Assembly (NCBI GenBank): GCA_965204375.1
Contig: OZ241986.1
Coordinates: forward strand, 352,001-416,000
Origin: Candidatus Latescibacterota bacterium
GTDB taxonomy: Bacteria > Latescibacterota > UBA2968
Direction: 5' to 3'
Length of the DNA: 64,000 bases
Positions 12,013 through 49,952 of this stretch are shown here, piece after piece (the first letter of the stretch is position 1; the number at the start of each line of letters is the position of its first letter). The notes beneath the pieces were generated by a model. That model did not search any database. It was not told where the DNA came from and saw nothing but the letters and a program-made list of their open reading frames with translations. Made by a program: the position numbers and the translations under genes.

Positions 12013-13041
12013 ATGCAAAAATTGTCCCGTGATTCTACAATTCTCACCACCACAGTTGGGTCTTATCCGCTGCCCGACTGGCTCGTGGCAGCACCGAGTG
12101 AAACCGCTGTTGTGGATGCCACGCGCGTTATCTTCGATACGCAGCGTCAGGCTGGAATTGATCTGCCTACCGATGGCGAACTCTACCGATTTGACATCAA
12201 CCATCCCGAGACCAATGGCATGATCGAATATTTTGTGCGCCCTATGGGCGGTACGCGCGTCGATTTTGGGCGTACTGAGGTCGAGACATTTCGTCAACGA
12301 CAATCCATGGACTTTCGCGCCAAACCCGCTGCTGTTGTCGATGACGCGCTCTCAGAGGGGGCACTCGACCTGTTATCCGACTGTTTGCGTGCAGCAACCG
12401 TCGCAGGTGGTTCCTTCAAATTTACGCTTACCAGCCCCTATATGCTTGCCCGCACCTTGCTCGACAACTACTACGGAGATTTTGAAGCCCTGCTCATGGG
12501 GGTGGCCGATGTGTTGGCCGATCAGGTGCGCGGCCTGCCATGCGCCTGTGTACAGGTCGATGAAGCCAATATTCCGGGTAATCCCGAGGACGGGCCTATC
12601 GCAGCGAAGGCGATTAATAGAGTACTCGACGCGGTCGATCCCGATACTGAGAAAGCTGTTCACTTTTGTTTTGGAAATTACGGTGGGCAAACCATCCAAC
12701 GCGGCACCTGGCGCGCGCTTATTGATTTCCTCAACAATCTGCACACCGATCACCTCGTTCTCGAACTCGCCCATCGCCCTGATGATGATCTGGTTGCTCT
12801 GAAAGAAATTGATCCGCGCATCAAACTCGGCATTGGCGTGGTCGATATCAAAATTAATCACGTTGAAACTGCCGAACAGATTGCCCGACGCCTCGATTAC
12901 GCCGAAAAAGAACTCGGCCCGGGGCGCATCGCATTTATTCATCCCGATTGCGGGTTCTGGATGCTCAAACGCTCGGTGGCAGACCAAAAAATCGTAGCCC
13001 TCGCGCAAGGCAGAGATCTTTATTTGGGAAGGGTGAAGTGA
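12013..13041 (+). CDS. Cobalamin-independent methionine synthase catalytic-domain-only protein (MetE C-terminal family)
   Basis: TTTVGSYP.P, TDGE, VQVDE, Zn ligands HFC..., LELA and HPDCG. About 340 aa, with no N-terminal folate-binding half. Confidence 0.82.
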   Translation: MQKLSRDSTILTTTVGSYPLPDWLVAAPSETAVVDATRVIFDTQRQAGIDLPTDGELYRFDINHPETNGMIEYFVRPMGGTRVDFGRTEVETFRQRQSMDFRAKPAAVVDDALSEGALDLLSDCLRAATVAGGSFKFTLTSPYMLARTLLDNYYGDFEALLMGVADVLADQVRGLPCACVQVDEANIPGNPEDGPIAAKAINRVLDAVDPDTEKAVHFCFGNYGGQTIQRGTWRALIDFLNNLHTDHLVLELAHRPDDDLVALKEIDPRIKLGIGVVDIKINHVETAEQIARRLDYAEKELGPGRIAFIHPDCGFWMLKRSVADQKIVALAQGRDLYLGRVK

Positions 13042-13063
13042 GAAGGGTGAAGTGAGAGGGTGG
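13029..13063 (+). repeat. Heptamer tandem array AAGGGTG/AAGTGAG at a gene end
   Basis: AAGGGTG AAGTGAG AAGGGTG AAGTGAG AGGGTGG, spanning the stop codon. Confidence 0.8.
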
Positions 13064-13130
13064 TCAACTACAGCATAGGCAGTCATGCTCGAATGACTCG
13101 CCTTCATATCCCATTCCGTACATTCTATAC

Positions 13131-16100: not shown

Positions 16101-17828
16101 CGAGAAATTACAGGAGGTGCTTCCTTTTTATCGCAGGATGTGCTCTTGCCCACATTTGGTGTGGGCAAAGCCGAAAAAATCGAAGTGCTCTCCCTGCGCT
16201 GGCCCAGTGGTATTGTACAGCAATTTCGCAGTGATAGAGACGATTTATCGGTCAATCGCGTTATAGATATTACCGAAAAACCCTCCCTGCCCCCTGCTCG
16301 CGTTCTTTTGTTTGCAGACGCGGCCAATTTGCTGGCCAATGGTATCTCCGAAATTGAACTCACCGCACAGATCGTCACAATAGACAACAGACCTTTGCCC
16401 ACCAGCGATCAGGCGGTTAAATTCCGCATAGAGAGCGGTAGTGGTCTCATCATTTCTTCTCAGAGGTCCGAAGCCGCCGGAGATTCCGTCGCGGTGCGCG
16501 ATGGCGTGGCGTATGCGCGTTTTCGAGCAGGTCGAGACCATGGGCGCGTTGTCATGGTTGCCGAAAGTGCGGGTCTGGAATCCGGGCGCGTTGAGATAGA
16601 ACTCCTCAAACCTTTTGGAGAAGATGCCCTGACCATTCGCACTATCGCCGGTTCGGGCGATGAGGTCGGTGGGTTTCAAGGCGATGGCGGCGCAGCTATT
16701 GAGGCACTTCTTCAGCGACCACAAGGCGTATTGGTCGATCCGTTGGGCAATATTTATATTGCGGATACAGAGAATCACCGCATTCGCTTTGTGAGTGTGG
16801 AAACAGGTATTATCCAGACTATTGCAGGGACAGGATATGCGGAAGATATTAATATGCCTCGAGGTATGGTTCTTCAGGGCGATTTGCTCATCAGTCAGAT
16901 GGGCAATCACGTTGTGAGCACGGTGCAGGATGAGGTGTTGTTCGCCTTTGCAGGAATTGGAATTGGTCAGTTTGGAGGCGATGGGGGGCGTGCTTTGGAC
17001 GCCAATTTGAGAAGTCCTGCAGGGCTTGCCATTGACTCGCGAGGGAATGTCTATATCGCCGATACGGATAATCACCGCATTCGCAAAGTCGATGCCAATG
17101 GTATTATTACAACTATTGTAGGCAGCGGCGATCCGGATCAGGGCGCATTTTTGGGCGATGGTGGTGCGGCCACACAGGCGCGCTTAAATCGCCCCAGTGC
17201 GGTTGCTATTGACGCGCATGACAATATTTATATTGCGGATACGGATAATCACCGCATTCGCAAAGTCGATTCCAATGGTATTATTACGACCATTGTGGGA
17301 ATGGGAATTGGAGGATTTTCTGGCGATGGTGGTGCGGCCACACAGGCGCAACTTAATTCTCCAAAGGGTATTGCCGTTGATACACAAGGATATCTTTTTA
17401 TTGCCGATACGAATAATCATCGCATTCGCTTGCTCGATTTGAATAGCGGCTTGATCCAGACTGTGGCGGGCACGGGGTCGGGACAACTCGATTTCGAAGA
17501 AGGCAGTGCCCTCGCCGGAAGTCTCAATGCCCCACATGGTTTGGCTCTTAGTCCAACTGGCACCCTGTTAATTGCGGATGCAGCAAATCACAGAATACGA
17601 GAACTGTCTGTTCTCTTTGATTTGGCTTTTGCATTGCCTGCTGTTCCACAGGCAAAAGCCTTCGATTTCAATGCCGATGGTCGGTTCGATTTCGACGATT
17701 TTCGGATCTTTGTCAACGCTTTTGACTCCGCCGATATGCGCTTTGATCTCAATGCCGATGGTCGGGTTGGGTTCGACGATTTTTTACAATTTGCCAGGGT
17801 TTATGAAGTGAGAAGTGAGATGCCATGA
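13131..17828 (+). CDS. Large secreted repeat protein: NHL propeller, 2 choice-of-anchor-D/ASH Ig-like domains, FG-GAP/VCBS propeller + ASPIC/UnbV, Ig-like domain, NHL propeller, EF-hand/dockerin-like tail
   Basis: Signal peptide; repeated GNIYIADTDNHRIR and GDGG.A units; repeated WGDFDNDGDLDLYV and NRLYRNDG units; DAIGTR...GG.SFLSQ...FGVG...WPSG (UnbV); C-terminal DFNADGRFDFDDF...FDLNADGRVGFDDFLQF. Confidence 0.88.
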   Translation: MRYIYIFFCIFLISEAGVFAQTRGAIVTIAGGGLEDGDNVLATDVVLNRPLGIALDTRGNLYIADTDNHRIRRVDAITGIITTVAGTGEPGFSGDGGPATMALLNTPNAIAVDSAGNIYISSGGASESDVHNRRIRRIDAFGIITTVAGTGEGGFNDLVPALQATFHEIVALTMLGDIALLISDSLDENGQGNNRVRQFNLANNTIGTIAGNGSAQTSSIQDGGLATRAGLTPGQLAVTGNGDLLIADFNNGRIRRISRATRDTTVVVVINTVAGRGATSAENLSEDLYKGDGGPATGALFFSPSGVAIDGAGNIYIGDTGNNRIRVVETETGNVLTIAGTGVAGEGSEGTLGLLSDLGQPTHLLIDGNGDLIFIDAFNNRIRKLRDPAFRMPLFNAISTDIIFGRVSVGDPAVRHLRVENRGNLSVRIEAAISDNPGFRVLSELPFEVGIAQIAELEIVFDPVQTGVARGVITITTNDSRIPSATVNVQGWGDAANIGLFPSDVLIFDRTSIGQSQTLSVRISNLGAGVLVVPNATTTDSQFVVEQTDVLRIESGQSQRLPIIFRPQSEDLQQAVLTIFSNAPGTPAVRLQLRGIGQSAQPGGFVDVAPNMGLGDTGAGFGAAWADFDNDNDPDFYLVRSREPNRLYRNDGTGFTDIAPALGIDDSGDGSAGIWGDVDGDGDLDLYVTNFGESNRLYRNDGVRFTDIATTFGVDGSGDGYGAAWADYDRDGDLDLYVANFGANRFYRNDGNGFSERADSLGIGDIESGIQPAWGDFDNDGDPDLFLANSGPNRLFRNDGEQFTSVENIFSPVDTGPSFGATWGDFDNDGDLDLFIPYFGADNRFYINEDNGVFRDRAPEMMLNHDGRGRGAVWGDFDSDGFLDLYVTNSGQPNLYYQNEDGLFVEMSDSLGVALNADSRGVALADYDNDGKLDLYVAVQDGPDALFRNREADGNWIAIRLRGTDSSTDAIGTRLKIEFKDGDGNNRQAIREITGGASFLSQDVLLPTFGVGKAEKIEVLSLRWPSGIVQQFRSDRDDLSVNRVIDITEKPSLPPARVLLFADAANLLANGISEIELTAQIVTIDNRPLPTSDQAVKFRIESGSGLIISSQRSEAAGDSVAVRDGVAYARFRAGRDHGRVVMVAESAGLESGRVEIELLKPFGEDALTIRTIAGSGDEVGGFQGDGGAAIEALLQRPQGVLVDPLGNIYIADTENHRIRFVSVETGIIQTIAGTGYAEDINMPRGMVLQGDLLISQMGNHVVSTVQDEVLFAFAGIGIGQFGGDGGRALDANLRSPAGLAIDSRGNVYIADTDNHRIRKVDANGIITTIVGSGDPDQGAFLGDGGAATQARLNRPSAVAIDAHDNIYIADTDNHRIRKVDSNGIITTIVGMGIGGFSGDGGAATQAQLNSPKGIAVDTQGYLFIADTNNHRIRLLDLNSGLIQTVAGTGSGQLDFEEGSALAGSLNAPHGLALSPTGTLLIADAANHRIRELSVLFDLAFALPAVPQAKAFDFNADGRFDFDDFRIFVNAFDSADMRFDLNADGRVGFDDFLQFARVYEVRSEMP

Positions 17829-18448: not shown

Positions 18449-18476
18449 AAGGCGAGAAGAAAAATCTCCTCGCCTT
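18449..18476. terminator. Hairpin between convergent genes (likely terminator)
   Basis: AAGGCGAG...CTCGCCTT inverted repeat with an A-tract on the left (U-tract for the minus strand). Confidence 0.6.
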
Positions 18477-18503
18477 ATCGCGAATACGGGAAGCCATATT
18501 TGC

Positions 18504-19703: not shown

Positions 19704-19746
19704 ATTAGCCTCCTGAATACAAATCTTTCAAATAGAGGTCACACCA

Positions 19747-19775
19747 AGTATAATATACTACAAAAGTTTAGACAA
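19747..19775 (-). promoter_or_regulatory. Putative sigma70 promoter for the porin gene
   Basis: TTGTCT-N17-TATACT on the minus strand. Confidence 0.5.
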
Positions 19776-22510: not shown

Positions 22511-23128
22511 ATGAAGCGGTTTACTACCGTTATTTTGCTCGGCTTGATATGGACGGCTCATGCGGAAGAAGATCGCAAGACGATTTTGTTTTTGGGGGAT
22601 AGCCTGACCGCGGGTTATGGCCTGGATAAAACGCAGGCTTTTCCCACGTTGATTCAGGCAAAGATCGATTCGCTCGGGTGGACGTTTGATGTGGTTAATG
22701 GCGGACTGAGTGGCGAAACATCGGCAGGAGGGTTACGGCGGGTCAACTGGTTGCTGCGGCGAAAAATCGATGTGCTGTTGCTGGCATTGGGGGGCAACGA
22801 TGGCTTGCGGGGGATTCCCACGGCTGAAATGCAGCAAAATTTGCAGGGGATTATAGATCTCGCAAAAGAGAAATATCCAGATATTCAGATCATACTTATG
22901 GGTATTGAAGCACCACCGAATTTGGGAGATGCATATACGACGGCTTTCCGCGCAGTGTTCCCGGCTCTATCTGAAAAGAATCGCGTGCCTTTGATACCCT
23001 TTTTGTTAGAAGGGGTTGGCGGGATTCCCGAACTGAATCTGCCAGACCGCATTCATCCCAATGCTGCGGGACATCGGATTATCGCAGAAACCGTGTGGCG
23101 CATACTTAAACCGGCATTAAAAAAGTAA
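22511..23128 (+). CDS. Arylesterase / acyl-CoA thioesterase (TesA-like SGNH hydrolase)
   Basis: Signal peptide, GDSLTAGYG, NGGLSGETS, LGGNDGLRG and DRIHPN motifs. Confidence 0.92.
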   Translation: MKRFTTVILLGLIWTAHAEEDRKTILFLGDSLTAGYGLDKTQAFPTLIQAKIDSLGWTFDVVNGGLSGETSAGGLRRVNWLLRRKIDVLLLALGGNDGLRGIPTAEMQQNLQGIIDLAKEKYPDIQIILMGIEAPPNLGDAYTTAFRAVFPALSEKNRVPLIPFLLEGVGGIPELNLPDRIHPNAAGHRIIAETVWRILKPALKK

Positions 23129-23162
23129 GAAGTGAGAAAAAAGAGAAAGGAAGAATGTGAAA

Positions 23163-23249
23163 ATGGATTTGCCAGAACGACCATTTGAGAATGAATACAT
23201 CGCCATACTGACCAGCATCATCAAAAAAATGCAAAGCAAACAACTCTAA
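23163..23249 (+). pseudogene. 28-aa mini-ORF, probable internally deleted four-helix-bundle (23S rRNA IVP/bAvd-like) gene
   Basis: MDLPERPFE + NEYIAILTSIIKKMQSKQL resembles the N- and C-termini of four-helix-bundle proteins. It is flanked by inverted heptamer arrays. Confidence 0.55.
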
Positions 23250-23265
23250 CTTCACACTTCCTCCT

Positions 23266-25827
23266 TTACACTTCGCCTCGCAATATTTCGAGTGGTGGTC
23301 GGTCGGCGATGCCGCGACTGTTGAGCATGCCGACTAAGATGGTGAGCGCGGTGACGAGGGCAAAGACGCCGACAATGGCCGCAGTGGGCAGGGCAAAGTG
23401 GATGTCGAAAATAAAGACGGTGACAGCCCAGGCACCGCCAATAGAGAGTATGAGTCCCGTCAGGGTAGCGAGTGCGCCCAGAAAGGTGTATTCCAGCAAG
23501 AGTATGCGGCGAATCTGTTTTTGAGATGCGCCCAAAGTACGCAGCAAAACGGCTTCTTGAATGCGCTGATAGCGGCTGGTGGTGACTGCGGCAGTTAGTA
23601 CAATGAGTCCGGTAATCACACTAAAGAGTGCCATGAAGCGCACGACAAAGGCGATTTGTGAGAGTACATCGTCAACGGTTTTGAGAATGAGACCGAGGTC
23701 AACAGCCGATACATTGGGGTATTGTTGTACCAGTGTGCGTTGCAATACAGCGGATTGTCCGGTTGTGTTTATGCGCGTGGTCAAGACGTGAAACTGCGGA
23801 GCGGTTTCGAGTACGCCTTTGGGAAAGACGATAAAAAAGTTTGGCTGGATGCGCTGCCAGTCAACTTCTCGCAGGCTTTGTACTGTGGTCTGAATGGGCA
23901 CGCCCTGGACGTCGAAGGTCAGGGTATCGCCGAGCGAGACGCGAAGCGAGCGGGCAATGTCGCGCTCAAAAGAAATGGGGATGGGTTCTTCGGTCCGTTC
24001 TGTATCGATCCAGGTGCCGCCTACGAGGCGTTCTGAATCGAAGAGGTGATTGCGATAGGTCGAGCGGTATTCGCGTTGTATTGCCCAGCGCCGCACGTCG
24101 TGTATTCTGCCGTAGGAACGCGCCTCTTGACCTTTGATGCTCTTCAGACGCATGGTGACGATGGAGGCATGGTGAATGACGGGCAGATTCTGTTTGCGGA
24201 GTAACGCGCTTACGCCTTCAATCTGATCGGTTTGCACATCGACGAGCACAAAGTTGGGGCGGTTGTCGCTCCCCGCGATGGCAATTTGAGCGAGCAAGGC
24301 GTGTTGCACAATATAGAGCGTGGTGATGAGAAAGGTGCCGAGGCCCAATGCGAGCATGAGAATTACGGTCTGATTGTGTGGACGGTAGAGGTTGGCCAGG
24401 CCCTGTCGCCACACGTATTGCCAGGTTGTGGGAAAGAAGCGGCGAACGGTTTTGATGATGAGCCACGATGCGCCTATGAGGAGTCCAAAGGCAATGCCAA
24501 ACCCGATGGCAATGCCAATTCCAATGAGGATACTACTGGTTTGCACAATGCCCAATCCCGCGACAATGAGACAGATCCCGCCGATGGTCATCAGTTGTAG
24601 GGGGTCTATTTGGGATCGCGCGTTTTCAAAAGATGCCCGCAAGGTGTGTAGGGGTGATGTGCGGCGAATAGGCAACAGGGGGAGCAATGCAAAGAGTAGC
24701 GACAGACTCAGGCCAATGCCGGTACCTTGAATGATCGCCCAATAGGAAAACTGAATATCGAGTTCAATAGGCAGAATTTGTGCGAGAACACCGGGCAGGA
24801 GATACTGAATGCCCATACCGAGGAGAGAACCGCAGCCCGTGCCAATAAGACCCAGCGCGATAGCCTGGATGGCGTAAATGCAGAGGATCTGATTCGATTG
24901 CGCACCCATGCAGCGCAGGATGGCGACGGTTGTTATTTTTTGGCGCGTATAAACGTGAATGGCACTGGCAACGCCGATACATCCGAGTAAGAGGGCGGCA
25001 AAGGCGACAAGACTGAGGAAGATATAGAGATTATCCAATATGCGATTGAGGCGTCTTTGACGGCTGGCAACGGTTTCGGTACGCAAATTTTGATCCCCGC
25101 GGTAGGGGCGAAGCTCGCGCTGGATGGATCCGATTCTCGTGCTGCTATCAAACTTAAAATAGGCCGCATAAGACGCCAGACTGCCAAATTTGATGAGGCC
25201 CGTTTTATCGAGATGCGATAAGGGGATGTACACACGCGGTGCAACTGTGGCAAAGGCCATAGCCTCGCCCGATATTTTTGTGATGCGTCCGCCTATGACA
25301 AAGGTGTGGTTGCCAATTCGCACAGAATCGCCGACCTGAACCCCAAATTGGATGAGCAAGCCATCGTCGAGTAGCGCGTGATGGGTATGCTGAAAGGTCT
25401 TCGACGCTTGTAGTGGATTGGTTTCAAATGTGCCGTAATAGGGAAAGTCGCCTTGTAGTGCACGCACCTGTACCAGGCGGGTGCCGCCGTTTTTGGGAAA
25501 GAAGACCATCGAGGCAAAGCGCACTTCTCTGGATTGCTCCCCACCCCATGAGTTGAATAGGGAGTCAACCGCAGGGGCAAAAGCACGCTGGCTGCTGACG
25601 CGCAAATCAGCACCTAAAAGTGTGCGCGCTTCGTTTTCGACAACGCGTTGCAGGTTATCGCCCAGAGCGCGAACGGCCACGAGGCCACCCACGCCGAGCA
25701 ATATACAGGAAATAAAGAGTAGCAATCGGTGGCGATACGTGCGACTATCGCGCCAGGCCATGCGCCAGGTCCATGCGTTGAAGAGTGGGCTGGAGGTCTG
25801 ATTTTTAATGCTGGTGATTCGATCCAT
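23266..25827 (-). CDS. ABC transporter permease, YbbP-like (double FtsX)
   Basis: MAWRD.R, LLGADL, FPYYG, AILRCMGA, PNF.LVDVQ.DQ and E..LLRTLGAS motifs. Confidence 0.9.
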   Translation of the reverse strand: MDRITSIKNQTSSPLFNAWTWRMAWRDSRTYRHRLLLFISCILLGVGGLVAVRALGDNLQRVVENEARTLLGADLRVSSQRAFAPAVDSLFNSWGGEQSREVRFASMVFFPKNGGTRLVQVRALQGDFPYYGTFETNPLQASKTFQHTHHALLDDGLLIQFGVQVGDSVRIGNHTFVIGGRITKISGEAMAFATVAPRVYIPLSHLDKTGLIKFGSLASYAAYFKFDSSTRIGSIQRELRPYRGDQNLRTETVASRQRRLNRILDNLYIFLSLVAFAALLLGCIGVASAIHVYTRQKITTVAILRCMGAQSNQILCIYAIQAIALGLIGTGCGSLLGMGIQYLLPGVLAQILPIELDIQFSYWAIIQGTGIGLSLSLLFALLPLLPIRRTSPLHTLRASFENARSQIDPLQLMTIGGICLIVAGLGIVQTSSILIGIGIAIGFGIAFGLLIGASWLIIKTVRRFFPTTWQYVWRQGLANLYRPHNQTVILMLALGLGTFLITTLYIVQHALLAQIAIAGSDNRPNFVLVDVQTDQIEGVSALLRKQNLPVIHHASIVTMRLKSIKGQEARSYGRIHDVRRWAIQREYRSTYRNHLFDSERLVGGTWIDTERTEEPIPISFERDIARSLRVSLGDTLTFDVQGVPIQTTVQSLREVDWQRIQPNFFIVFPKGVLETAPQFHVLTTRINTTGQSAVLQRTLVQQYPNVSAVDLGLILKTVDDVLSQIAFVVRFMALFSVITGLIVLTAAVTTSRYQRIQEAVLLRTLGASQKQIRRILLLEYTFLGALATLTGLILSIGGAWAVTVFIFDIHFALPTAAIVGVFALVTALTILVGMLNSRGIADRPPLEILRGEV

Positions 25828-25895
25828 GAGGCAAATTAAAAATTAGGAATGGGGGCTGTTTGGGTGGACTGACCACTGATTTTGGGTGGCGGGGT

Positions 25896-25930
25896 ATCCT
25901 GTTCATCCTTTAATCCTGCACATCCTGATC
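25896..25930 (+). repeat. Degenerate 9-mer tandem array (ATCCTGxxC)
   Basis: ATCCTGTTC ATCCTTTA ATCCTGCAC ATCCTGATC; the opposite strand encodes the DQDVQD* tail of the ATPase. Confidence 0.7.
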
Positions 25931-26599
25931 CACTTTGCCACCTTGCAGGTGGATGATGCGCTGCGTGCGTGCGGCGATATCGTGATCGTGCGTGACGAGG
26001 ATGAGGGTTGTGCCCGCTTCGCGGTTGAGGTCAAAGAGCAGATTGGCGATGGTATGACTGCTGTCGGCGTCGAGGTTGCCCGTAGGCTCGTCGGCAAATA
26101 AGATGCGCGGTTGGTTGATAAAGGCGCGTGCAATGCCCACGCGCTGTTGTTCGCCACCCGAAAGCTGAGCGGGATAATGCGTCAAGCGGTCGCCCAATCC
26201 CACGCGGTCGAGCAATTCTCTCGCTTCGCCAAACACACCGTTTTTACCGCGTAGTTCGAGGGGAACCGCGACATTTTCAATGGCGGTGAGGGTGGGGATG
26301 AGTTGAAAGCTCTGAAAGACAAAGCCCACGTATTCATTTCGCACGGCTGCGCGTTGGTCTTCGTCGAGGCTGTCGAAGGCCATGCTGTGAAGGGTGACAG
26401 TGCCCGATGTTGGGCGATCAAGGCCGGCACATAATCCGAGTAGCGTGGTTTTTCCACTGCCCGAGGGTCCTACTATCGCACAGGTTTGGCCTTTGGGTAT
26501 GGTGAACGTGACGTTGTCTAAAACGGTGAGCGAATGTCCCCCGCTCGTGTAGGTGCGGGTGAGGTTTTGAACTGCGAGTGCTGTGTTTGAATGGCTCAA
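25910..26599 (-). CDS. ABC transporter ATP-binding protein, YbbA/LolD-like
   Basis: [26 protein letters not shown] and VTHD motifs. Confidence 0.93.
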
Positions 26600-27883: not shown

Positions 27884-27884
27884 A

Positions 27885-28775
27885 TTAAATGAAAGAGCCT
27901 CGTTTAAGAGCAGCCTGTGGATCATACCACACTGCTTTTACAAAATTCTGTATTTCTCGCACGAATTTCCAAACTATTTTGGCATCTATTGGAAATTGTT
28001 CATGCTGGCGTTTTACTTCGTAATAATTTCCTCTTTTTCCATAAGGAAGTCTCTTTGTTTTTCGCAGCAAAAAAACATTATCAATCTCGGTTAGTCTGCA
28101 ATCTTCAGGCTCCATATCTAAGTATTCCACCAAAGCGTAATATTTCGCAATAGGGCACCCTTGTTTCAATCGGGCGGCTGTACCTGCACATTCTTGAAAC
28201 ATGGTTTTATCATAATTCACTTTGATTTCTGCCGCAAGCACGGCCAAACAAAAACTGCCAGAAGTCGTGTTTTCTACCTCAAAACTTGCACTTGGCGAAA
28301 ATCTATAATGAATTGTTTTGCCAAGTGCGAAATCTTGATCTTTATGCTTTATAACCACTTGGGGCTTTCCCCCCAAATCATTTATACTTGGTGGAACAAA
28401 AGATAGAGATAGAAATGCTGTATGCGGTCCCACTTCTAAATCATACAAAGGCAATCCGTGTAGAATTGAAGGATCTATGACATGGATGAAAAATTCTTCC
28501 AGCACTGAATTATCGAGTTTTAGTTGTCCTTTTTGTCTCTTTATAAATTCAGATCCATGTCCAGTAATCAATTCGACTTCAAGATAATTTTTGTAGTCGT
28601 TTAAAAGGCTAACCATTTCCTCAATTTTCTGTTTACCAGTTGAATTTAAGGTTCCCATACTTGAAATCCAATGCTCGTAAGCTCCATAAGCCTCTTTCAA
28701 TATTGATTTGTCATCAATACATTTTGGATTTCTCAATGCCGCCAACAATTTTTCTCTATGGGGTGTTTTTGCCAT
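27885..28775 (-). CDS. Type II restriction endonuclease, Bpu10I/DdeI-like family
   Basis: RQKGQLKLDNSVLEEF, KDQDFALGK, AAEIKVNYDKTMFQE and YYALVEYLDM motifs; AT-rich; coupled to the MTase. Confidence 0.85.
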   Translation of the reverse strand: MAKTPHREKLLAALRNPKCIDDKSILKEAYGAYEHWISSMGTLNSTGKQKIEEMVSLLNDYKNYLEVELITGHGSEFIKRQKGQLKLDNSVLEEFFIHVIDPSILHGLPLYDLEVGPHTAFLSLSFVPPSINDLGGKPQVVIKHKDQDFALGKTIHYRFSPSASFEVENTTSGSFCLAVLAAEIKVNYDKTMFQECAGTAARLKQGCPIAKYYALVEYLDMEPEDCRLTEIDNVFLLRKTKRLPYGKRGNYYEVKRQHEQFPIDAKIVWKFVREIQNFVKAVWYDPQAALKRGSFI

Positions 28776-29988: not shown

Positions 29989-30087
29989 CTTCTTCTCCTA
30001 TGCTTTGCGTAGTATATGGAAATCACGAACAAATATAGTATCCATTTGTTTACCGAGCAAGGGAGAATTTGTTCCTAAATATATTTC

Positions 30088-30696: not shown

Positions 30697-30780
30697 CAAA
30701 GAGAGCAAAATAGCGGCTCTTAGTAGGACCTTGTTTAATCAATTGAGTAAGAAAAAACGATAATATGTAGGAGGGCTGTA

Positions 30781-31864: not shown

Positions 31865-32713
31865 ATGGACACACCATATCGCACCATCGACGTGAAACCT
31901 CTATCTGGAGCACTCGGCGCTGAAATTGAAGGCGTTGACATTGCGTCGGAGACCGGTGAGGAACAATTCGCTGAAATCTATCGGGCCTTTGCAGATTACA
32001 GCGTGATTCTCTTTCGCAATCAGTCCCTCACACAGGAACAACACATTGCATTTGCCCGACGCTGGGGAGATATCAATGTCAACCGATTTTTTACGGGCGT
32101 AGCGGAAAATCCCCTCATCGCCGAGGTACGAAAAGAACCCGATCAGGAAACCAATATTGGGCGCAACTGGCATACCGATCATTCTTACGATACCATTCCC
32201 GCACTCGGCTCGATTCTTTACGCACGCGAAGTTCCCGAGTTTGGTGGTGATACGATGTTTTCCAGTATGTACAGAGCGTATGAAACCCTCTCGCCGGGGT
32301 TGCGGAAAACGCTCGAAAACTTAAATGCCCTGCATTCCAGCCGACATGTTTTTGGAGCGATGAACGGCAGAAAGCCCGATAAAAGCGGTCGTATTGGCAA
32401 TCCCGAACTCGCCACCCAGGATGCTGTCCATCCCATAATCATAAGGCACCCTATCTCAGGTCGCAAAGCACTTTACGTAAATCCCGTGTTCACCGTTCAA
32501 ATTGAGGGATGGAAAAAAGAAGAATCCCAATCTTTGCTTCAGTATTTGTACCAGCACGCTTCCCAACCGGATTTTACATGCCGCATCCGCTGGAAAAAAG
32601 ATACGCTCGCTATTTGGGACAACCGCGCGACCTGGCATTGCGCGCTCAATGATTATCAGGGACAGCGACGCCTCATGCACCGCATCACGATTGAAGGTGT
32701 GCCGTTGAATTAA
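31865..32713 (+). CDS. TauD/TfdA family Fe(II)/2-oxoglutarate dioxygenase
   Basis: LGAEIEGVD, WHTD, GGDT and WDNRATWH...R motifs. Confidence 0.93.
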   Translation: MDTPYRTIDVKPLSGALGAEIEGVDIASETGEEQFAEIYRAFADYSVILFRNQSLTQEQHIAFARRWGDINVNRFFTGVAENPLIAEVRKEPDQETNIGRNWHTDHSYDTIPALGSILYAREVPEFGGDTMFSSMYRAYETLSPGLRKTLENLNALHSSRHVFGAMNGRKPDKSGRIGNPELATQDAVHPIIIRHPISGRKALYVNPVFTVQIEGWKKEESQSLLQYLYQHASQPDFTCRIRWKKDTLAIWDNRATWHCALNDYQGQRRLMHRITIEGVPLN

Positions 32714-32732
32714 AAATTAGGAGAACCCATCG

Positions 32733-35742: not shown

Positions 35743-37104
35743 TTGGCTAACGGTCAACTCTTACACCTGCTAACCGCCCGCGCCGAGTCTAAAAATCCCC
35801 TTCGCGTGGGCCTTATCGGTGCTGGAAAGTTCGGCACCATGTTCCTGGCTCAAGCCCGTCGCGTTGCGGGGTTGCACGTTCTGGGTGTGGCTGATCTATC
35901 CCTGAATCGGGCGCGTGAAGCCCTCACGCGTGCTGAGTGGCCGCCCGAACAATTTGCCGCAACCCACTTTGATCACGCCCTCAAAACCGGCGCCACCCAT
36001 CTTACCGATGACAGCGATGCCCTCATCCAGGCGGACGGTCTGGACGTTCTGGTCGAAGCCACGGGCAATCCTCTCGCAGGCATCCACCACGCCCTTCAAG
36101 CCATCGAATACGGACGCCACCTGGTCATGGTAAATGTGGAAGCAGACGTCCTGGTCGGTCCCATCCTGGCCCAACGTGCAGCATCTGCAGGCCTCGTGTA
36201 CTCCCTCGCCTATGGCGACCAACCCGCTCTGATCTGTGAACTGGTGGAATGGGCTAAGACCAATGGCTTGGACATTGTCTGCGCCGGCAAAGGCACCAAA
36301 TACCGGCCCGCGTACCACACATCTACCCCTGATACTGTATGGGAACACTATGGTTTTGATGCTGAAACCGCTGCAAAAGGCGGTCTGAACCCCCGTATGT
36401 TCAACTCCTTTTTGGACGGTACAAAATCCGCCATTGAAATGGCCGCTGTCTCAAATGCCACTGGCCTGAATCCCCAGCCCGAAGGCCTGAAATTCCCGCC
36501 CTGCGGCATTGACCAGCTATCCGATATTTGCCGGCCTCATAGCGACGGGGGACAACTTTCCCACAAAGGAACCGTCGAAGTCGTCTCCAGCCTGCAACCA
36601 GACGGAACCCCTGTAGATCGGGATCTGCGCTGGGGTGTTTACGTCACCATCGAAGCCCCTGGCGACTACATCCGCCGCTGCTTCTCCGAATACGGCCTTC
36701 CCACTGATTCCACGGGACGTTACACGGCCATCTATCGCCCCTACCACCTGGTTGGCATGGAACTCACCACCAGTGTCTTGCGCGCTGGCTTGCGCGGCGA
36801 AGCCAGCGGCGCACCTGTTGTTTTTAATGCAGACGTTGTTGCCACTGCAAAACGCGATCTCTCCCAGGGAGAAGTCCTGGACGGCGAAGGCGGATATTGC
36901 GTGTACGGCAAACTCAGGCCGGCTGATCAAGCTCTTATGTCTAACACCCTGCCCATCGGTCTGGCTCACAATCTCAAGCTGAAACACAAAATCGCCGCGG
37001 GGCAACCCATACGCCAATCCGACGTTGAATTGGACGAAAACAACGCCATTCTCCGCCTCCGCCGGGAAATGGTACAACGCTTTGCGGAACCTCTGCGCCG
37101 TTAA
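35743..37104 (+). CDS. NAD(P)-dependent oxidoreductase, homoserine-dehydrogenase-like with C-terminal SAF domain (COG4091-type)
   Basis: GLIGAGKFG, MVNVEAD, YGDQPA, FNSFLDGTKSAIEM, YRPYHL and AKRDL..GE.LDGEGGY motifs. Confidence 0.9.
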   Translation: MANGQLLHLLTARAESKNPLRVGLIGAGKFGTMFLAQARRVAGLHVLGVADLSLNRAREALTRAEWPPEQFAATHFDHALKTGATHLTDDSDALIQADGLDVLVEATGNPLAGIHHALQAIEYGRHLVMVNVEADVLVGPILAQRAASAGLVYSLAYGDQPALICELVEWAKTNGLDIVCAGKGTKYRPAYHTSTPDTVWEHYGFDAETAAKGGLNPRMFNSFLDGTKSAIEMAAVSNATGLNPQPEGLKFPPCGIDQLSDICRPHSDGGQLSHKGTVEVVSSLQPDGTPVDRDLRWGVYVTIEAPGDYIRRCFSEYGLPTDSTGRYTAIYRPYHLVGMELTTSVLRAGLRGEASGAPVVFNADVVATAKRDLSQGEVLDGEGGYCVYGKLRPADQALMSNTLPIGLAHNLKLKHKIAAGQPIRQSDVELDENNAILRLRREMVQRFAEPLRR

Positions 37105-37132
37105 ATTAAAAATTAGGAAAGGGAGCAAAACA

Positions 37133-37453
37133 ATGAACAATGAACAATCGCTTTTGCCACCGAAAATTTCATTTTTTGAAAAACGATTGACAATAATTCT
37201 TGCTCGAGATGATGCGATGGTATGCGCTTTCTGTCCCGAATTGGATTTGGTGACTGAAATGGCAACGCCCGATGAAGCACTGGAAGATATGCTGGAAGCC
37301 ATGCAGGATTATGCTGAGGAATATTTAGAGGACTTAGAAATTTATCAAAACAGTCCCAATTGCGCCCATCATTTGCCTTATATCCAGGCGATTGCTGAGT
37401 GTAAAGATGTCTGGGATATAGGAGAACCCCTCGATGGCATCCATAACCTTTAA
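37133..37453 (+). CDS. HicB-like antitoxin-fold small protein, possibly C-terminally truncated
   Basis: AFCPELDLVTEMATPDEALEDMLEAMQDY is a HicB-type motif. The last codons are read from the dapA copy 2 leader. No hicA is nearby. Confidence 0.65.
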   Translation: MNNEQSLLPPKISFFEKRLTIILARDDAMVCAFCPELDLVTEMATPDEALEDMLEAMQDYAEEYLEDLEIYQNSPNCAHHLPYIQAIAECKDVWDIGEPLDGIHNL

Positions 37454-38354
37454 AGGTGTCTTTCCCATCCTCGTCACTCCATTTGATGACCATGGCAACC
37501 TCGATCTGGAATCCTTTGATCGAACGGTACGCTTTATGGCGGATATCGGTGTAAACGGCGTTACCATCATTGGTGTACTCGGTGAATCCAATCGAATGCT
37601 GGATACCGAACGGGAGCAGATTATTAAAACCGCTGTGGGTGCTGCAGGCGGGTGCATCCCCGTTATCGTGGGCACGAGCTACAGCGGCACACGGGCGACC
37701 CTTGAACTCAGCCAGATGGCCGAATCTCTCGGCGCCGCCGGTGTGATGGTCACTCCTTCGCGCGAATCCGTGCCCAACGAAGACCGCATCTTCGAATTTT
37801 TCCAGCAGGTGGCCGAAGGCATCTCCATTCCCATCGTCGTACAGGACCACCCCGCCTCCACCCAGGTTCACATGTCCGTCCCTCTCATCTTGCGTCTCAT
37901 CCGCGAAATTCCGCTCGTCGCCTGTATCAAAGAAGAGGCTGTGCCTACCCCGCCCAAGATTACCGCCCTTTTGAACGGCATTGGGGACCGTGAGGTCACC
38001 ATCCTCACTGGCCTCGGCGCTCTCTACGGTGCCTTTGACCTTGCCCGCGGCGCACACGGTTTTATGACCGGCTTTGCCTTTCCCGAAGTTCTGCTCGCCC
38101 TGGTTCGGTGCGCTCAAAATAAAGACTTTGACACCGTACACGATATCTATCACCGATACCTGCCGCTCATCGTGTACGAACAACAGCCGGGGGTGGCCAT
38201 CCGCAAAGAGATCTTCCGCCTGCGCGGCCTTATCGCCAGCAGCTACGTGCGCCATCCCGGCGCAAATATCGATCCAATCACTGCCGATCACTTGAAATCA
38301 CTCTTGCACAAAATGTTGCCCGGCGTGGATATTACGAGACCTATCGAGGTTTGA
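37434..38354 (+). CDS. DapA/NAL-family aldolase/dehydratase, copy 2
   Basis: 306 aa, with 15 substitutions relative to copy 1 by manual comparison. Confidence 0.9.
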   Translation: MASITFKGVFPILVTPFDDHGNLDLESFDRTVRFMADIGVNGVTIIGVLGESNRMLDTEREQIIKTAVGAAGGCIPVIVGTSYSGTRATLELSQMAESLGAAGVMVTPSRESVPNEDRIFEFFQQVAEGISIPIVVQDHPASTQVHMSVPLILRLIREIPLVACIKEEAVPTPPKITALLNGIGDREVTILTGLGALYGAFDLARGAHGFMTGFAFPEVLLALVRCAQNKDFDTVHDIYHRYLPLIVYEQQPGVAIRKEIFRLRGLIASSYVRHPGANIDPITADHLKSLLHKMLPGVDITRPIEV

Positions 38355-38688
38355 GATGTGGTTTCGTGTTATTTAAAACCTTTACTGATAAGATCATCAT
38401 AACTAACAGGTTCTTGGATAGCCTCAGCGAACTCTCTTGCTTCGTTATGAGAAGGAAATTTCTTAACTAAATAACCACGACCACTAAAACAATCAACTTC
38501 TACTATATGATCGTCTGGTGGATCTTTAAATCCATATATTGTAATTTTACATTTGTCGGCATCTGAAGCATCCCCATTAGGCCAATCATCTTTTATCGGT
38601 AAGGGAGGAGAAGGGTGACAGTAACTAAATCTCCGAGCTTGTGCTCTTTTCCGATTAACTTCCGAATCAAAAAATCTTGCTTTTCTAA

Positions 38689-40399
38689 CCTGAAAAATTC
38701 ATAAAAAAGGTAGTTTCCTTATTCAAGTTATTGTATTATTATAGGTTATGGCAATAACCATTGAACAATAAACTTGGAGGAAACTACCGTGGGTTCCCAA
38801 GATAATCATCACAAGGTTCCTTTGGCAAGCATTTTCGGCAAACGTGTCAATATCGCCTTTGATGGGGGCATCCTCACCAGTGATAGCGGCGCCTTATTGC
38901 TTCGAGAGGTGGAGGCCAGATCAGGTCTATTAGCACGCATCGGTGATGCCATCACGGATCGCCGGCATAAAAGTTATGTGGCTCATCGTGTGGCAGAGTT
39001 GATTAAACAGCGCGTGTTCCAGATTGCCTGCGGGTATGAAGATGCCAATGATTGCAATGCCTTACGCAGTGATCCCGGCATCAAGGCTGCCTGTGGTGTC
39101 TTGCCCCTTTCAGGTGCCGACTTAGCCAGTCAACCGACGATGAGTCGTTTTGAGAACCAGATCAGGCGAAGCGAGTTGTATCGCATTGCCTGTGCCTTCC
39201 TCGATTGTTTTATCGCCTCTTATGCCCAGCCCCCTGCTGCGATTATCTTAGATATCGATGATACACAGGATACAGTTTATGGGACACAGCAGTTGTCCCT
39301 ATTCAATGGGTATTTGGGTGCCTATTGCTATCAGCCCTTGCACATTTATGAAGGACAAACCGGCAAGTTGATCACCACAGTTTTGCGTCCCGGTGTGCGA
39401 CCAACAGGCCAACAGATTGTCGCCATACTCAAGCGTTTGGTGGCCTATCTGCGTCAGGCTTGGCCTGATGTGGCGATCATCTTGCGGGGTGATGCCCACT
39501 TTTCTTGTCCACAAGTCCATCAGTTGTGTGCCGATAGTGACCTGTATTTTATCCTTGGACAGACCAGCAATGCGAAGTTGAGACAGTTGGCAAAGCCCCT
39601 GATTGAGCAGGCGAAAAGGCTTTATGCACATACAAAGAAGCCTGTGCGTCTTTTTACCTCGTTTTGCTATCAAGCAAAGAGTTGGAACAAGGCACAACGC
39701 ATCGTATGCAAGGTAGAAATCAGTGACCGAGGCCAAAACACCCGCTTTGTCGTGACCAACCTTGAAAGTTCACAAGCCTCCTTTATCTACCAAAGCGTGT
39801 ATTGTGCGCGCGGACAGATGGAAAACTTCATTAAAAATCACAAAACCTTTCTCCACTCTGACCGCACATCCTGTCACAGCTTTACTGCCAATCAGTTCCG
39901 TCTCTTCCTCCATTCGGCTGCCTATGTCCTGATACAGACATTGGCGCAAATCGGATTGAAAGGCACAACGTGGACAAACGCGCAGGTCAATACCATACAA
40001 AATCGCTTTCTCAAAGTCGCCGGACGCATCTGTGAATTGAAAACGAAGATTACGTTCCATTTGCCTGCGTCCTTTCCAGTGCAACATCTGTATCATAAAA
40101 TCCTACACAATCTGGCAAAGGCTTTCCCCTAACGCAAAATACGGGGGAGGGGAGGCAGACACCATCACTTGCTGACTGGACACGACACATACACCGCCTT
40201 GTGCAAAGACGCGGCAGGCAAGGGGCGTGTCTGTCCTTTTTGCCAACCACAGGCACGCACACCCGATGAAATGGACCAAACAGACCCCTGTAAAGACCCA
40301 ATCGAGTCCGACAAGAACAGAAAAACAATGAACGAGAGCTTGGAACACCGAAATGATTACATAATTATCCTATTCTTCAACTTTCATGAATTAGTCGGG
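38689..40399 (+). mobile_element. IS1380-family insertion sequence (1711 bp)
   Basis: IRL CCTGAAAAATTCATAAAA, IRR (reverse complement) CCCGACTAATTCATGAAA, and a 4-bp target duplication CTAA at 38685-38688 and 40400-40403. Confidence 0.93.
38789..40132 (+). CDS. IS1380-family DDE transposase
   Basis: FDGG.LTSDSG, GYEDAND...LR.DP, LASQPTMSRFEN, LDIDDT, LRGDAHF and YCARGQMENFIK motifs; GTG start after GGAGG. Confidence 0.95.
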   Translation: MGSQDNHHKVPLASIFGKRVNIAFDGGILTSDSGALLLREVEARSGLLARIGDAITDRRHKSYVAHRVAELIKQRVFQIACGYEDANDCNALRSDPGIKAACGVLPLSGADLASQPTMSRFENQIRRSELYRIACAFLDCFIASYAQPPAAIILDIDDTQDTVYGTQQLSLFNGYLGAYCYQPLHIYEGQTGKLITTVLRPGVRPTGQQIVAILKRLVAYLRQAWPDVAIILRGDAHFSCPQVHQLCADSDLYFILGQTSNAKLRQLAKPLIEQAKRLYAHTKKPVRLFTSFCYQAKSWNKAQRIVCKVEISDRGQNTRFVVTNLESSQASFIYQSVYCARGQMENFIKNHKTFLHSDRTSCHSFTANQFRLFLHSAAYVLIQTLAQIGLKGTTWTNAQVNTIQNRFLKVAGRICELKTKITFHLPASFPVQHLYHKILHNLAKAFP

Positions 40400-40556
40400 C
40401 TAAATCTATTATCAACGCGTCGTCCAATACGAGAATAAGAACTTCTTCTAGCCACGAGAGAACCCCCTTTTCAAATTTTATGTCGTCAATCAATCTGCAC
40501 ATTTTCACGGTTGAATCTGCTGTCTCCAATTTACATTGGAGCCTCTAATATTTCAA

Positions 40557-44165: not shown

Positions 44166-44215
44166 AGAAACCCCCTTGATAGTAGAAATTGGGGTATGTA
44201 TTGGATCATATATAC

Positions 44216-45115: not shown

Positions 45116-45158
45116 GGCGGAGTACTCCTTTTAAAAGTTGGTTTATTGCAAAATTAAG

Positions 45159-47522: not shown

Positions 47523-47543
47523 GATTGTTTCCTAAATGCCAAT

Positions 47544-48590: not shown

Positions 48591-48808
48591 GGCAATATCT
48601 GTTATTACAAGGTGAAAGATGGTGTTGTGCAGGAATAGGCAATGTACGTTGGTCAGGGAAGGGCGTCAAGCGGTTGTGGCGTGTTGAATCTTGCCAATAG
48701 TGAAAGACGGTCTGCGTTGACAATGTGTAAGGTGTTGTGTTATTTATGTGGTCAGATTTACTGGCGTTGTAATGCTGGGTTGATCGTTAACTTAATCGAG
48801 GAGGCAAA

Positions 48809-49894
48809 ATGGCAGATAAATTGAAGGTGGGTATTGTCGGAGTAGGAGGTATTGCGCGGACGCATATTCCGGGTTGGCAGGCTTCGGAACATGCCGAATT
48901 GGTGGCTGGAAGCGATATTAGCGAAGATGTGTTGAAGGATTGGGGTGAACAATACGGGATCAAAAAACTGTATGTAAATCCGGAAGATTTGTTTGCCGAT
49001 CCAGAGATAGATATTGTGGATGTGTGTACACCAAATAATTATCACGCGCCTCTATCTATTGGCGCGCTGGATGCGGGTAAACACGTGATTTGTGAAAAAC
49101 CTCTGGCACCCAGTCCTCAATTGGTGAAAGATATGATTGCTGCGCGCGACTCGTCGGGCAAGTTGTTGATGTGCGCGCAGTCGTCGCGGTTTGCGGGATC
49201 ATCTCTGGCGATGAAGCGGGAATTGGATACCGGGGTGTTGGGAAATGTGTATCACGCGCGGTGCTGGATGTTGCGGCGGTCGGGTGTGCCCGCGCGGCCG
49301 GGTTTTATTATGAAAAAACACAGTGGTGGCGGGCCGTGTATTGATATTGGCGTTCACGTTTTGGATTTGACGCTGTGGTTGATGGGCAATCCCAATCCCG
49401 TAGCTGTAACGGGGGTGGCGAAGGCGGAGTTGGCACATCAGGAGGGTGCTTTCAGTACGATGGGGCGCAGTGGTGGCGCGATTCCCGAAGAGTTTGATGT
49501 GGAGGATTTTGCAGCGGCTTTTGTGCGGTTTGAAAATGGGGCTTCCCTTATTCTGGAGACGAGCTGGATGTTGCATCAAGGTCCCCCGTCAGAACGGCAA
49601 ATATGGCTTTACGGCACAAAGGGTGGGGCACACTTGCCCAGTTGTGAGATTTATTATTCGGATTCCAATACGCAGCAACATCACAAATACGCATTGCAAG
49701 ATACGGGCGATATCGCCAGAGCACACGCGCTGGAATGCATGACGTTTGCCGAGGCGATTACAGAGGGCAAACCGTCGCCAGTGCCGGCTGAACAGTCGCT
49801 ACAGGTGATGGCGATTTTGGATGGGATTTATCGCAGTGAAGAGGAAGGGCAGGAAGTGGATATAGCGCGAGATGCAAAAATAATTAAGAATTAA
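48809..49894 (+). CDS. Gfo/Idh/MocA family oxidoreductase
   Basis: GIVGVGGIA, GKHVICEKP and GGGPCIDIGVH motifs. Confidence 0.93.
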   Translation: MADKLKVGIVGVGGIARTHIPGWQASEHAELVAGSDISEDVLKDWGEQYGIKKLYVNPEDLFADPEIDIVDVCTPNNYHAPLSIGALDAGKHVICEKPLAPSPQLVKDMIAARDSSGKLLMCAQSSRFAGSSLAMKRELDTGVLGNVYHARCWMLRRSGVPARPGFIMKKHSGGGPCIDIGVHVLDLTLWLMGNPNPVAVTGVAKAELAHQEGAFSTMGRSGGAIPEEFDVEDFAAAFVRFENGASLILETSWMLHQGPPSERQIWLYGTKGGAHLPSCEIYYSDSNTQQHHKYALQDTGDIARAHALECMTFAEAITEGKPSPVPAEQSLQVMAILDGIYRSEEEGQEVDIARDAKIIKN

Positions 49895-49952
49895 GAATTG
49901 GCCCCGCCCCGCCTTTCCAATTTTTAATTTCTAATTTTTAATTCCTAATTGA
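49882..49952. repeat. Inverted pair of heptamer arrays between convergent genes
   Basis: AATTAAG AATTAAG AATTGGC, a GC spacer, then CAATTTT TAATTTC TAATTTT TAATTCC TAATTGA. Confidence 0.8.

Follow-up and report, generated by a model that had tools for sequence, protein, structure and literature searches.

The window analysed here comprises 64,000 nucleotides (nt), bases 352001-416000 of a single 6.34-Mb contig (50.8% G+C; genome code G000), from a sponge-associated bacterium whose close relatives are metagenome-assembled genomes (MAGs) labelled Candidatus Latescibacterota. Short tandem arrays, mostly of seven-nucleotide units (heptads) of the type GAAGNNN or AATTARR, lie at the ends of several of its genes, all of them ordinary metabolic and transport genes. 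An earlier note had read these arrays as the borders of exchangeable micro-cassettes. All the array sequences quoted in it were found at their positions, and the C-termini said to be supplied by arrays (EVRSEMP, KIIKN and DQDVQD, each followed by the stop) follow from the sequence and the ends of the open reading frames (ORFs). The arrays are probably paired arms belonging to small composite hairpin elements, a lineage-specific family that fills gaps between genes; a gene of the family PF05635 occupies the centre of one intact and one collapsed copy.

Seven window sites are named by position: A (13028), B (17805), C (23122), D (25834-25930), E (32708), F (37104) and G (49882). Gene ends were taken from a home-made, crude caller based on ORFs and codon usage, by which 12% of the genome is intergenic. 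The window gene order is found in 20 other genomes of the same genus, at ~70-95% DNA identity, which represent different species and not strains; syntenic stretches were taken from 16 of the 20. Orthologous junctions are the DNA cut out between coding anchors, and genome counts include G000. BLAST segments between genomes of the genus break at the sites singled out by the earlier note. The RNA evidence consists of metatranscriptome run X8, used as assembled contigs, in which genes are covered on both sides of the sites. Tandem Repeats Finder (TRF) at score 30 misses 23123-23160, 23244-23278 and 25896-25930, and degenerate tracts were read by eye. The window contains no Rfam family at gathering score, and a search for tRNA and tmRNA targets within it found none. 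A 13-kb stretch with four canonical elements gave one sub-threshold microRNA match in Rfam (21 bits against a 73-bit cut-off, E 0.77), which was taken as chance.

Arrays at gene ends and the hairpins they form

Genome-wide, GAAGNNN arrays of at least three units at period 7 number 192 (92 + 100), whereas the median for all 256 tetramers is 1; the tetramer AATT yields 13 arrays by the same measure. Arrays of only two GAAGNNN units are at chance level (~200, with ~194 expected by our estimate), and the tract of 2.3 units at 17805 is therefore meaningful solely through its cross-species context. TRF reports 430 rows of period 7, led by the units GAAGTGT (82, rotations included), GAAGTGA (41), GAAGTAA (25) and GAAGGGT (14), with copy numbers from 2 to ~30 (TRF maximum 29.9). 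In a strict lag scan, periods 5 and 6 gave 0 arrays each, period 7 gave 46 (39 intergenic), period 8 gave 32 (26 intergenic) and period 10 gave 17 (16 intergenic). Array density at 4.1-4.6 Mb of the genome (e.g. locus L064) is 2-4 times the genome average, and coding density there is 84% vs 88%.

The enrichment at stop codons anticipated by the earlier note was borne out by the genome scan. The stop of a sense gene lies inside the array, or at most 10 nt upstream of it, for 101 of the 192 arrays, compared with ~11 expected under random intergenic placement. Gaps between convergent genes are enriched (42 arrays in 103 kb); tandem gaps hold 80 arrays in 526 kb and divergent gaps 28 in 146 kb. 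On the purine strand most units contain TGA, TAA or TAG (GAAGTGA, GAAGTAA, GAAGTTA-G, GAAGTGT-GA), while the complementary strand has none, and at period 7 three purine-strand units close all three reading frames, as can be read from the sequence. Because purine-strand arms stop translation, elements may be tolerated on the 3' ends of genes, where only a few C-terminal residues would be lost or swapped. The Meth_synt_2 gene of the window ends in YLGRVK in G000 and in YLGKATTA in species without the array.

A five-unit GAAGNNN pattern recurs beyond G000, in 18 of 20 genomes from the genus and 13 of 32 others from the order. Overlapping matches number 441 in G000 vs 0-77 in the other genomes; the built-in reversed control of this search is uninformative, as GAAGNNN...GAAG reads the same backwards.

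Neighbouring arrays are paired with a marked polarity, in agreement with the expected enrichment of inverted pairs. When the 392 arrays of at least two units are considered, neighbours within 400 nt are arranged GAAG to CTTC in 64 cases and CTTC to GAAG in 2, with 8 '++' and 9 '--' pairs; an inverted partner lies within 150 nt of 116 of the 192 longer arrays. The spacers of 51 array pairs align to one C-rich core, GAAGG-CCCCGCCCAACCACCCAAAGGCTGGTGCTTCATCCCA-CTTCACA, conserved over ~35 nt, and a profile made from the aligned spacers finds 67 copies genome-wide at E<=1, of which 62 reach E<=0.01. Counts of the core pattern are above those of its reversed control within the genus only (30 vs 0 in G000, 14 vs 0 in G009, 13 vs 2 in G012), and outside the genus its counts equal the control.

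In the 62 copies that score E<=0.01, GAAGTGA/TTA/TAA units make up the arm 5' of the C-rich core, with A at position 7 in 77% of 256 units, and the opposite arm, read on the purine strand, is made of GAAGTGT/TAG/GAG/GGT, with T or G at position 7 in 96% of 427 units. Arm flavour follows core orientation, and arms and centre therefore constitute one oriented unit. Arms have a median length of 4 units and reach maxima of 15 and 31. By our reading of the units, the stem is mismatched at every seventh position. Two canonical copies fold better than shuffled sequences (z -6.0 and z -5.4, with 0/200 shuffles as good in either case). Site C of the window (23118-23285) folds at -30.3 kcal/mol (z -2.68), and site G has z -3.36 on the + strand and z -1.43 on the - strand.

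Minor arm flavours comprise AATTARR heptads, ACGAATNN octamers, GCAGATGNNN decamers and AGGAT boxes. On the stop-containing strand, 17 of the 35 octamer arrays and 10 of the 26 decamer arrays abut a sense stop. The AGGAT element is a fixed arrangement of four boxes with 75 matches genome-wide; on its stop-containing strand 17 copies abut a preceding sense stop and 13 follow it at 11-50 nt, compared with 0 and 4 on the flipped strand. What had been taken for a 9-mer array at 25896-25930 is really one copy of this element. In four public runs its borders, 25895/25929, coincide exactly with a spike in depth and with many loose ends, from which it follows that the element is multi-copy. Binding of CsrA to the boxes, considered in view of the CsrA consensus, was rejected, as the genome has no CsrA gene (0/25 candidates). 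AATTARR pairs occur at ~20 loci (28 overlapping matches), compared with 0-3 for non-rotational permutations, and several are followed by GAATTGG and a G-rich centre. This pair excess, together with the replacement of GAAGTGA by GAATTAA x4 at site B of G015, identifies the AATT arrays as a minor flavour of the same system.

Centres are sometimes formed by another small repeat instead of the ~35-nt core. In the relatives G002, G009, G010, G014 and G018, other small hairpin repeats (gtaggggcga…tcgcccc; gtacaactggcc…ggccagttcac) fill the same junctions and are sometimes nested in the core. Several repeat families compete for the same junction slots.

The PF05635 gene cassette

Between the two arms of site C lies a short ORF that the earlier note had described as a collapsed four-helix-bundle ORF. 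The description holds: the remnant matches an intact gene elsewhere in the genome both by tblastn (89% over 18 aa) and by nucleotide alignment, and has itself no Pfam match at 28 aa. The intact ORF, of 118 aa (genome 4542442-4542798), belongs to PF05635 (23S_rRNA_IVP; E 6.6e-25 and 9.6e-26). Pieces of site C recur at genome 4542404-4542474 and 4542739-4542824, and the left end of the site is 85% identical to the first of these segments, the left end of the intact cassette. Judged by these alignments, window 23122-23277 is the same cassette, leader included, with ~265 nt removed. The intact cassette has an ortholog in G002 and a decayed counterpart in G009.

The gene-remnant filler is found in no other compared species at the orthologous site, where the junction ranges from 60 to 209 nt in 17 genomes. 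The minimal allele (G007, G008, G016) reads ...GAAGTGA-gaaaa-TCACACTTC..., its two heptads holding the two stops. G015 combines four heptads with a canonical core and a decamer array; G006 has a core variant and an extra hairpin; and G031 and G003 have a core-less GAAGGCC...TCACACTTC.

Elsewhere in the phylum, in which 52 of 168 genomes encode PF05635 genes, such genes also tend to lie beside tandem arrays. The survey took 31 loci, the best-scoring one or two per genome, of which 2 were dropped for a contig end in the flank. A tandem array of period 5-10 lies within 130 nt on any side of the gene at 21 of the remaining 29 loci and on both sides at 12, compared with 11/54 and 0/54 in a control displaced by 900 nt. 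Period 7 accounts for 24 of 33 such arrays, and TRF overlooks some degenerate arms visible by eye. The units vary by lineage, among them GGCATAA, GGGGTCA, CAGTGGC and AAGTGACA. Duplex energy of the flanks was abandoned as a measure in favour of TRF counts, since it gave no separation (median -68 vs -65 kcal/mol in controls).

A four-helix-bundle cassette with CAGTGGC-type arms occupies the same point of what reads as one conserved gene (…FGEPDI / VHGVDVF…) in six genomes of at least four genera (loci L068, L069, L077, L079, L081 and L082, in G001, G017, G038, G123, G091 and G130). Here a protein gene seems to contain an intervening sequence. Two RVT_1 genes are present in G000, at 1.65 and 3.94 Mb; neither is near the cassette at 4.54 Mb, which decides nothing on a reverse-transcriptase partner for the Avd-like gene.

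Window sites and their orthologous junctions

The features of the seven sites and the intact cassette are collected in Table 1.

Table 1. Arrays, centres and related features of the window, with the intact cassette found elsewhere in the genome.
Feature	Position	Strand	Content and relation to genes
Site A arm, one-sided	13028..13062	+	five GAAGGGT/GAAGTGA heptads; TRF period 14, 2.6 copies, 95% matches
Site B	17805..17820	+	GAAGTGA x2.3, 100% matches (TRF)
Site C left arm and leader	23122..23156	+	AAGTAA GAAGTGA GAAAAAA GAGAAAG GAAGAAT; holds TAA stop (23126-23128) of GDSL lipase gene
PF05635 gene remnant	23157..23249	+	28-aa ORF 23163-23249; first ~20 and last 18 codons kept, ~265 nt deleted
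Site C right arm	23250..23277	-	CTTCACA CTTCCTC CTTTACA CTTCGCC; holds stop (23266-23268) of FtsX/MacB permease gene, minus strand
Site D heptads	25834..25850	-	AATTARR/YTAATTT, including 14-mer; directly upstream of FtsX gene start (25827, minus)
Core-like C-rich centre	25851..25895	-	CCCCGCCACCCAAAATCAGTGG...; likeness to canonical core by eye, unscored by core profile
AGGAT-box element	25896..25930	-	four boxes at 9/8/9-nt spacing; supplies DQDVQD and stop of ABC ATPase gene 25910-26599
Site E 14-mer	32708..32721	+	AATTAAAAATTAGG; overlaps TauD stop (32711-32713) and ribosome site of DHDPS-family gene (start 32733)
Site F 14-mer	37104..37117	+	directly after DRL oxidoreductase stop; upstream of PHD_like antitoxin-family gene 37133-37453
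Site G AATT-flavour hairpin	49882..49950		AATTAAG x2.6 (49882-49899), GGCCCCGCCCCGCC centre, inverted 5.3-unit arm (49914-49950); TRF
Intact cassette	genome 4542389-4542897		left arm GAAGTGT GAAGGTA GAAGTTA x2, purine-rich leader, ORF, ~20 CTTCACA-type heptads

The proposal that sites exist in different states is upheld by the 16 sister species, whose orthologous junctions include empty, short and filled alleles. The site A array encodes the C-terminal codons of the Meth_synt_2-family gene 11992-13041 together with its TGA stop (13039-13041). Its orthologous junctions have 2-5 heptads in 10 of 17 genomes and none in the other 7, where the C-terminus differs. At site B the heptads are the last codons of a 1565-aa NHL/FG-GAP gene and directly precede a Sua5/YrdC gene whose start overlaps it; 2-5 GARGNNN heptads are found in 13 of 17 genomes, and the GAATTAA x4 of G015 stands at the same place. 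Within the NHL/FG-GAP gene, 177 nt at 17060-17238 are missing from run X2, which elsewhere is identical to the window; 33 nt are shared at the joint, and the run represents a repeat-unit deletion allele. Site D has 2-4 AATT heptads, of differing units, in 11 of 17 genomes, and in G016 a canonical core is placed between AATT heptads and CTTCACA heptads.

The hairpin of site G lies between convergent genes and supplies the final KIIKN and stop of gene 48809-49894. Junction length at this site ranges from 46 to 193 nt in 8 genomes: the AATT hairpin is present in G000 only, 5 genomes are empty (46-57 nt, the convergent genes abutting) and 2 have another repeat. Genomes in which the anchors lay more than 600 nt apart were excluded, because the 1.4-2.8-kb 'inserts' obtained in several genomes stem from tandem copying of the phosphatase genes. 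In the window these are two purple-acid-phosphatase-like genes of 437 aa in tandem (49953-51266 and 51300-52613), and relatives have one to three tandem copies.

Sites E and F differ in kind. Four copies of the 14-mer AATTAAAAATTAGG, all on the + strand, exist in the 6.34-Mb genome; the three that the earlier note had listed (25834, 32708, 37104) lie in the window, within 12 kb of one another, and the fourth elsewhere. At E and F the two-unit tracts are stop-plus-ribosome-site junctions in an operon and do not lie between arrays. At site E, G014 has the same sequence and most species have TGAATTAAAGTTAGGAG, with AATTAAAGTTAGGAG at the 14-mer position; in eight species additional genes, 1.3-6.6 kb in all, separate TauD from the DHDPS-family gene. 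The 14-mer of site F is shared by G016 and G018 only, and six species have a U-tract terminator in its place. The gene at 37133, taken earlier for HicB-like, has a Pfam match to the PHD_like antitoxins, and a PHD-like gene is found at site E in G016 and at site F in G000.

The surrounding operon, which contains both DHDPS-family genes, differs in gene content between nearly all sister species. The two genes, 32733-33653 and 37434-38354, are 92% identical over 940 nt, and the duplication begins after the 14-mer. A perfect heptamer repeat of another kind, AACAATG x2.9 at 37129-37148, forms the first codons (MNNEQ) of the PHD-like gene and is kept in several species. Further downstream, at 38683-40409, is an insertion sequence (IS) whose transposase, of 452 aa, matches DDE_Tnp_1_4 (E 1.6e-154); further copies in G000 number four at ~100% identity and nine at ~85%, and G006, G015 and G031 have many at ~81%. 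At 27884-30769 lies an island of low G+C (37%) that encodes a DNA methylase and a Bpu10I-like restriction endonuclease; runs X4, X8 and X6 have a 13-nt joint in its place, and most sister species lack it.

Origin of the elements and known systems

Elements lie on either strand as 5'-(GAAGNNN)n - centre - (NNNCTTC)m-3', the centre usually being the conserved ~35-nt C-rich mini-hairpin and, in one intact and one collapsed copy, the PF05635 gene. On the reading that we favour, gene-less copies would be non-autonomous relatives of the gene-bearing cassette. Arm length would change through replication slippage, and centres may be gained, lost or swapped when arm arrays at different loci recombine, or through a transposition step. 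As RNA, the long mismatched stem would likely be an RNase III site or a 3'-end structure. This comes close to one suggestion of the earlier note, that the arrays are footprints of an uncharacterised mobile element.

Several results weigh against such a family. No enzyme was identified for movement of the element, and no target-site duplication is visible at the filled and empty alleles inspected at sites C and G, where the repeat arms could hide one. Gene cargo in G000 amounts to one intact and one collapsed copy, against 62 core-type copies without an ORF, and PF05635 genes are found in 7 of 21 genomes of the genus; with gene cargo so rare, the link between gene-less cores and the gene cassette rests on shared arms and not on centre sequence. 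The single 23S rRNA gene of the genome contains neither tandem nor GAAG/CTTC arrays. In the window, the canonical core profile has no match, and sites A (z -0.22) and D (z +1.73) fold no better than shuffles, so that the stretch 13064-13130 does not earn its earlier description as hairpin-filled. The arms of one element may differ, as at site D of G016, where AATT heptads are paired with CTTCACA. Cores in tandem gaps are oriented 13:13 relative to transcription, and the gene-end statistics depend on the home-made caller.

A bolder version is possible, if speculative. The arms would be portable recognition or homology modules of a mobile system like the intervening sequences (IVSs) of rRNA genes, with the PF05635 (Avd-like) gene as its gene and the gene-less cores as its non-autonomous progeny, and the content between arms would be copied to other arm pairs without a dedicated integrase. 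If true, such a system would also explain the lineage-specific heptanucleotide repeats of Xanthomonas, Nostoc and other bacteria.

Plain simple-sequence repeats, arising and growing in place by polymerase slippage with neither a mobile unit nor a link to a gene, are the explanation offered for the Xanthomonas and Nostoc repeats in the accessible text of PMC4692102. The range of copy numbers from 2 to ~30 and their differences between species at the same junction suit this account. So do the change of flavour in place at site B, GAAGTGA in most species and GAATTAA in G015, and the native gene ends that already hold GAAG-type words in the minimal allele of site C. Against it stand the dominance of one motif family (192 arrays vs a median of 1), the strict polarity of pairing (64 vs 2), a conserved 35-nt centre in 62 copies whose orientation predicts arm flavour, and the same gene cassette with its leader at two unlinked loci. 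Slippage on its own is therefore unlikely to account for the arrays.

Selection for RNA signals has also to be considered, the stems being kept by the host as bidirectional terminators, stabilisers of mRNA 3' ends or RNase III sites. These same roles have been proposed for the repetitive extragenic palindromic (REP) sequences and bacterial interspersed mosaic elements (BIMEs). Positions directly after stops, enrichment between convergent genes, strong predicted hairpins and the retention of arrays by most species of the genus at sites A, B and D all fit. However, the genus uses ordinary U-tract terminators, such as the one that follows the DRL gene in six species; at many orthologous junctions the element is missing and nothing visible takes its place (5/8 empty at site G); and the load differs sharply between sister species (441 vs 0-77 five-unit matches). 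The random, 13:13 orientation of the centre moreover argues against a strand-specific RNA role for it. As the origin of the arrays, host selection seems quite unlikely; as a secondary effect, an RNA role is compatible with composite hairpin elements.

The integrase-free, integron-like swapping of small protein-coding cassettes (four-helix-bundle, toxin-antitoxin and others) at the arrays, close to what the earlier note proposed, we regard as improbable. In its favour, two loci have a four-helix-bundle gene as their centre, 1-4 called genes are enclosed by each of 13 '-+' array pairs (400-5000 nt), the 32708 junction gains and loses entire genes between TauD and the DHDPS gene, and the PHD-like gene changes place between sites E and F. 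Yet 52 of 54 '+-' pairs of at least three units have centres below 150 nt, too short for genes, and the 6.34 Mb contain one intact gene cargo; the genes between '-+' pairs are merely genes with an element at each end. Nor did a full-length, transposase-encoding parent with the same ends come to light, as a miniature inverted-repeat transposable element (MITE, a non-autonomous DNA transposon) would have: only 4 '+-' pairs of at least three units have spacers of 150-5000 nt, one of them being the four-helix-bundle copy, and no cargo of the others was recognised as a transposase, Pfam not having been run on the enclosed genes. The tracts at 32708 and 37104 are two units on a stop and ribosome site, replaced by AATTAAAGTTAGGAG or absent in most species, and there is no evidence that they cause the gene turnover around them; the exchange earlier read there is turnover at ordinary operon junctions. 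What survives of the proposal is that different contents are found between arms of the same kind, although the fillings are almost never genes but a ~35-nt non-coding core; of the suspected cargo, the four-helix-bundle gene is real and no toxin-antitoxin association was seen.

REPINs, inverted REP doublets moved by a REP-associated tyrosine transposase (RAYT, a Y1 transposase) as in Pseudomonas and E. coli, are hardly credible here: extragenic hairpins from inverted doublets, with singlets like decayed remnants, do match the REPIN pattern described in the accessible text of PMC3116915, but the arms are tandem heptads with no fixed REP palindrome, and the single-contig genome has no PF01797 Y1_Tnp match (0/7 candidates), while 6 control genomes were positive. 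With its defining gene not found in the genome, a RAYT/IS200 transposase was ruled out as the mover. The earlier statement that no responsible enzyme was identified in the window agrees with this lack of a Y1 transposase and of any long, arm-bounded autonomous copy.

Composite hairpin elements of the kind favoured here have consequences for their hosts and for annotation. Their arms rewrite the last few codons of ordinary genes, and gene-end annotation in Latescibacterota MAGs will be confused by them. The repeats also break short-read assemblies, contigs of run X2 ending at the AGGAT-box repeat. Three handles are now available: arm flavour tied to centre orientation, arms that stop all frames, and empty and filled alleles among sister species.

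In cyanobacteria, repeats of the heptamer type are named short tandemly repeated repetitive (STRR) sequences. The small dispersed repeats (SDRs) of Nostoc punctiforme, treated by Elhai and co-workers in 2008, are reportedly hairpin-like units of tens of nt inserted into other repeats; their likeness to the ~35-nt core between arms serves as a lead only. A close counterpart is (GGGANTN)n of Xanthomonas, with ~186 arrays per genome of 2-26 units, 70-75 convergent inverted pairs, 89-93% intergenic placement, a mean distance of 28 nt after the upstream ORF, and variation in length and sequence between sister species (PMC4692102, accessible text). The same text gives GGGGAYT as the intergenic heptanucleotide repeat of Nostoc, and states that heptameric repeats are over-represented in many bacterial genomes and that their role is still to be elucidated. 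As far as that text describes them, these repeats share with the arrays of G000 four or five fixed positions in a 7-nt unit, variable copy number, intergenic bias, closeness to the upstream ORF, inverted pairs and variation between sister species. Here GAAG is fixed and three positions vary, and the unit is not G-quadruplex-forming, unlike those of Xanthomonas and Nostoc. The 35-nt centre with orientation-linked arm flavour and the PF05635 centre found here are not reported for those genera in the accessible text of PMC4692102.

The extragenic hairpin repeats of other bacteria offer a second comparison. Like the elements described here, REP, BIME and REPIN sequences are short inverted doublets in extragenic DNA that fold into hairpins, gather downstream of genes and differ from strain to strain, according to the accessible text of PMC3116915. 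Unlike them, the elements here come without a RAYT gene, and their arms are variable tandem arrays and not one palindrome.

The layout of the elements is that of the ORF-bearing IVS of 23S rRNA genes. In the helix-45 IVS of Coxiella burnetii, a 28-bp terminal stem encloses an S23p gene in the loop and is excised by RNase III; 2-3 tandem GACAGAT heptamers, their number varying between strains, lie in the 5' stem region, and the ORF is under reductive evolution (PMC4990558, accessible text). Such IVSs are called selfish there, and their origin and way of moving not known. As described in that text, the IVS (Coxiella burnetii; also Leptospira and others) and the elements here have in common a PF05635/S23p gene in the loop of an inverted-repeat stem with tandem heptamers. 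In contrast to the IVS, the elements here lie between or at the ends of protein genes and not in rRNA, their arms reach 15-31 units, and almost every copy is without the gene, through loss or from the outset. In a literature search of listings and opening lines of abstracts, with subscription journals mostly outside it, no paper was seen to connect PF05635 genes with intergenic heptamer repeats as a whole. While such repeats form a class already known, this genome shows them and the IVS-type layout as one architecture.

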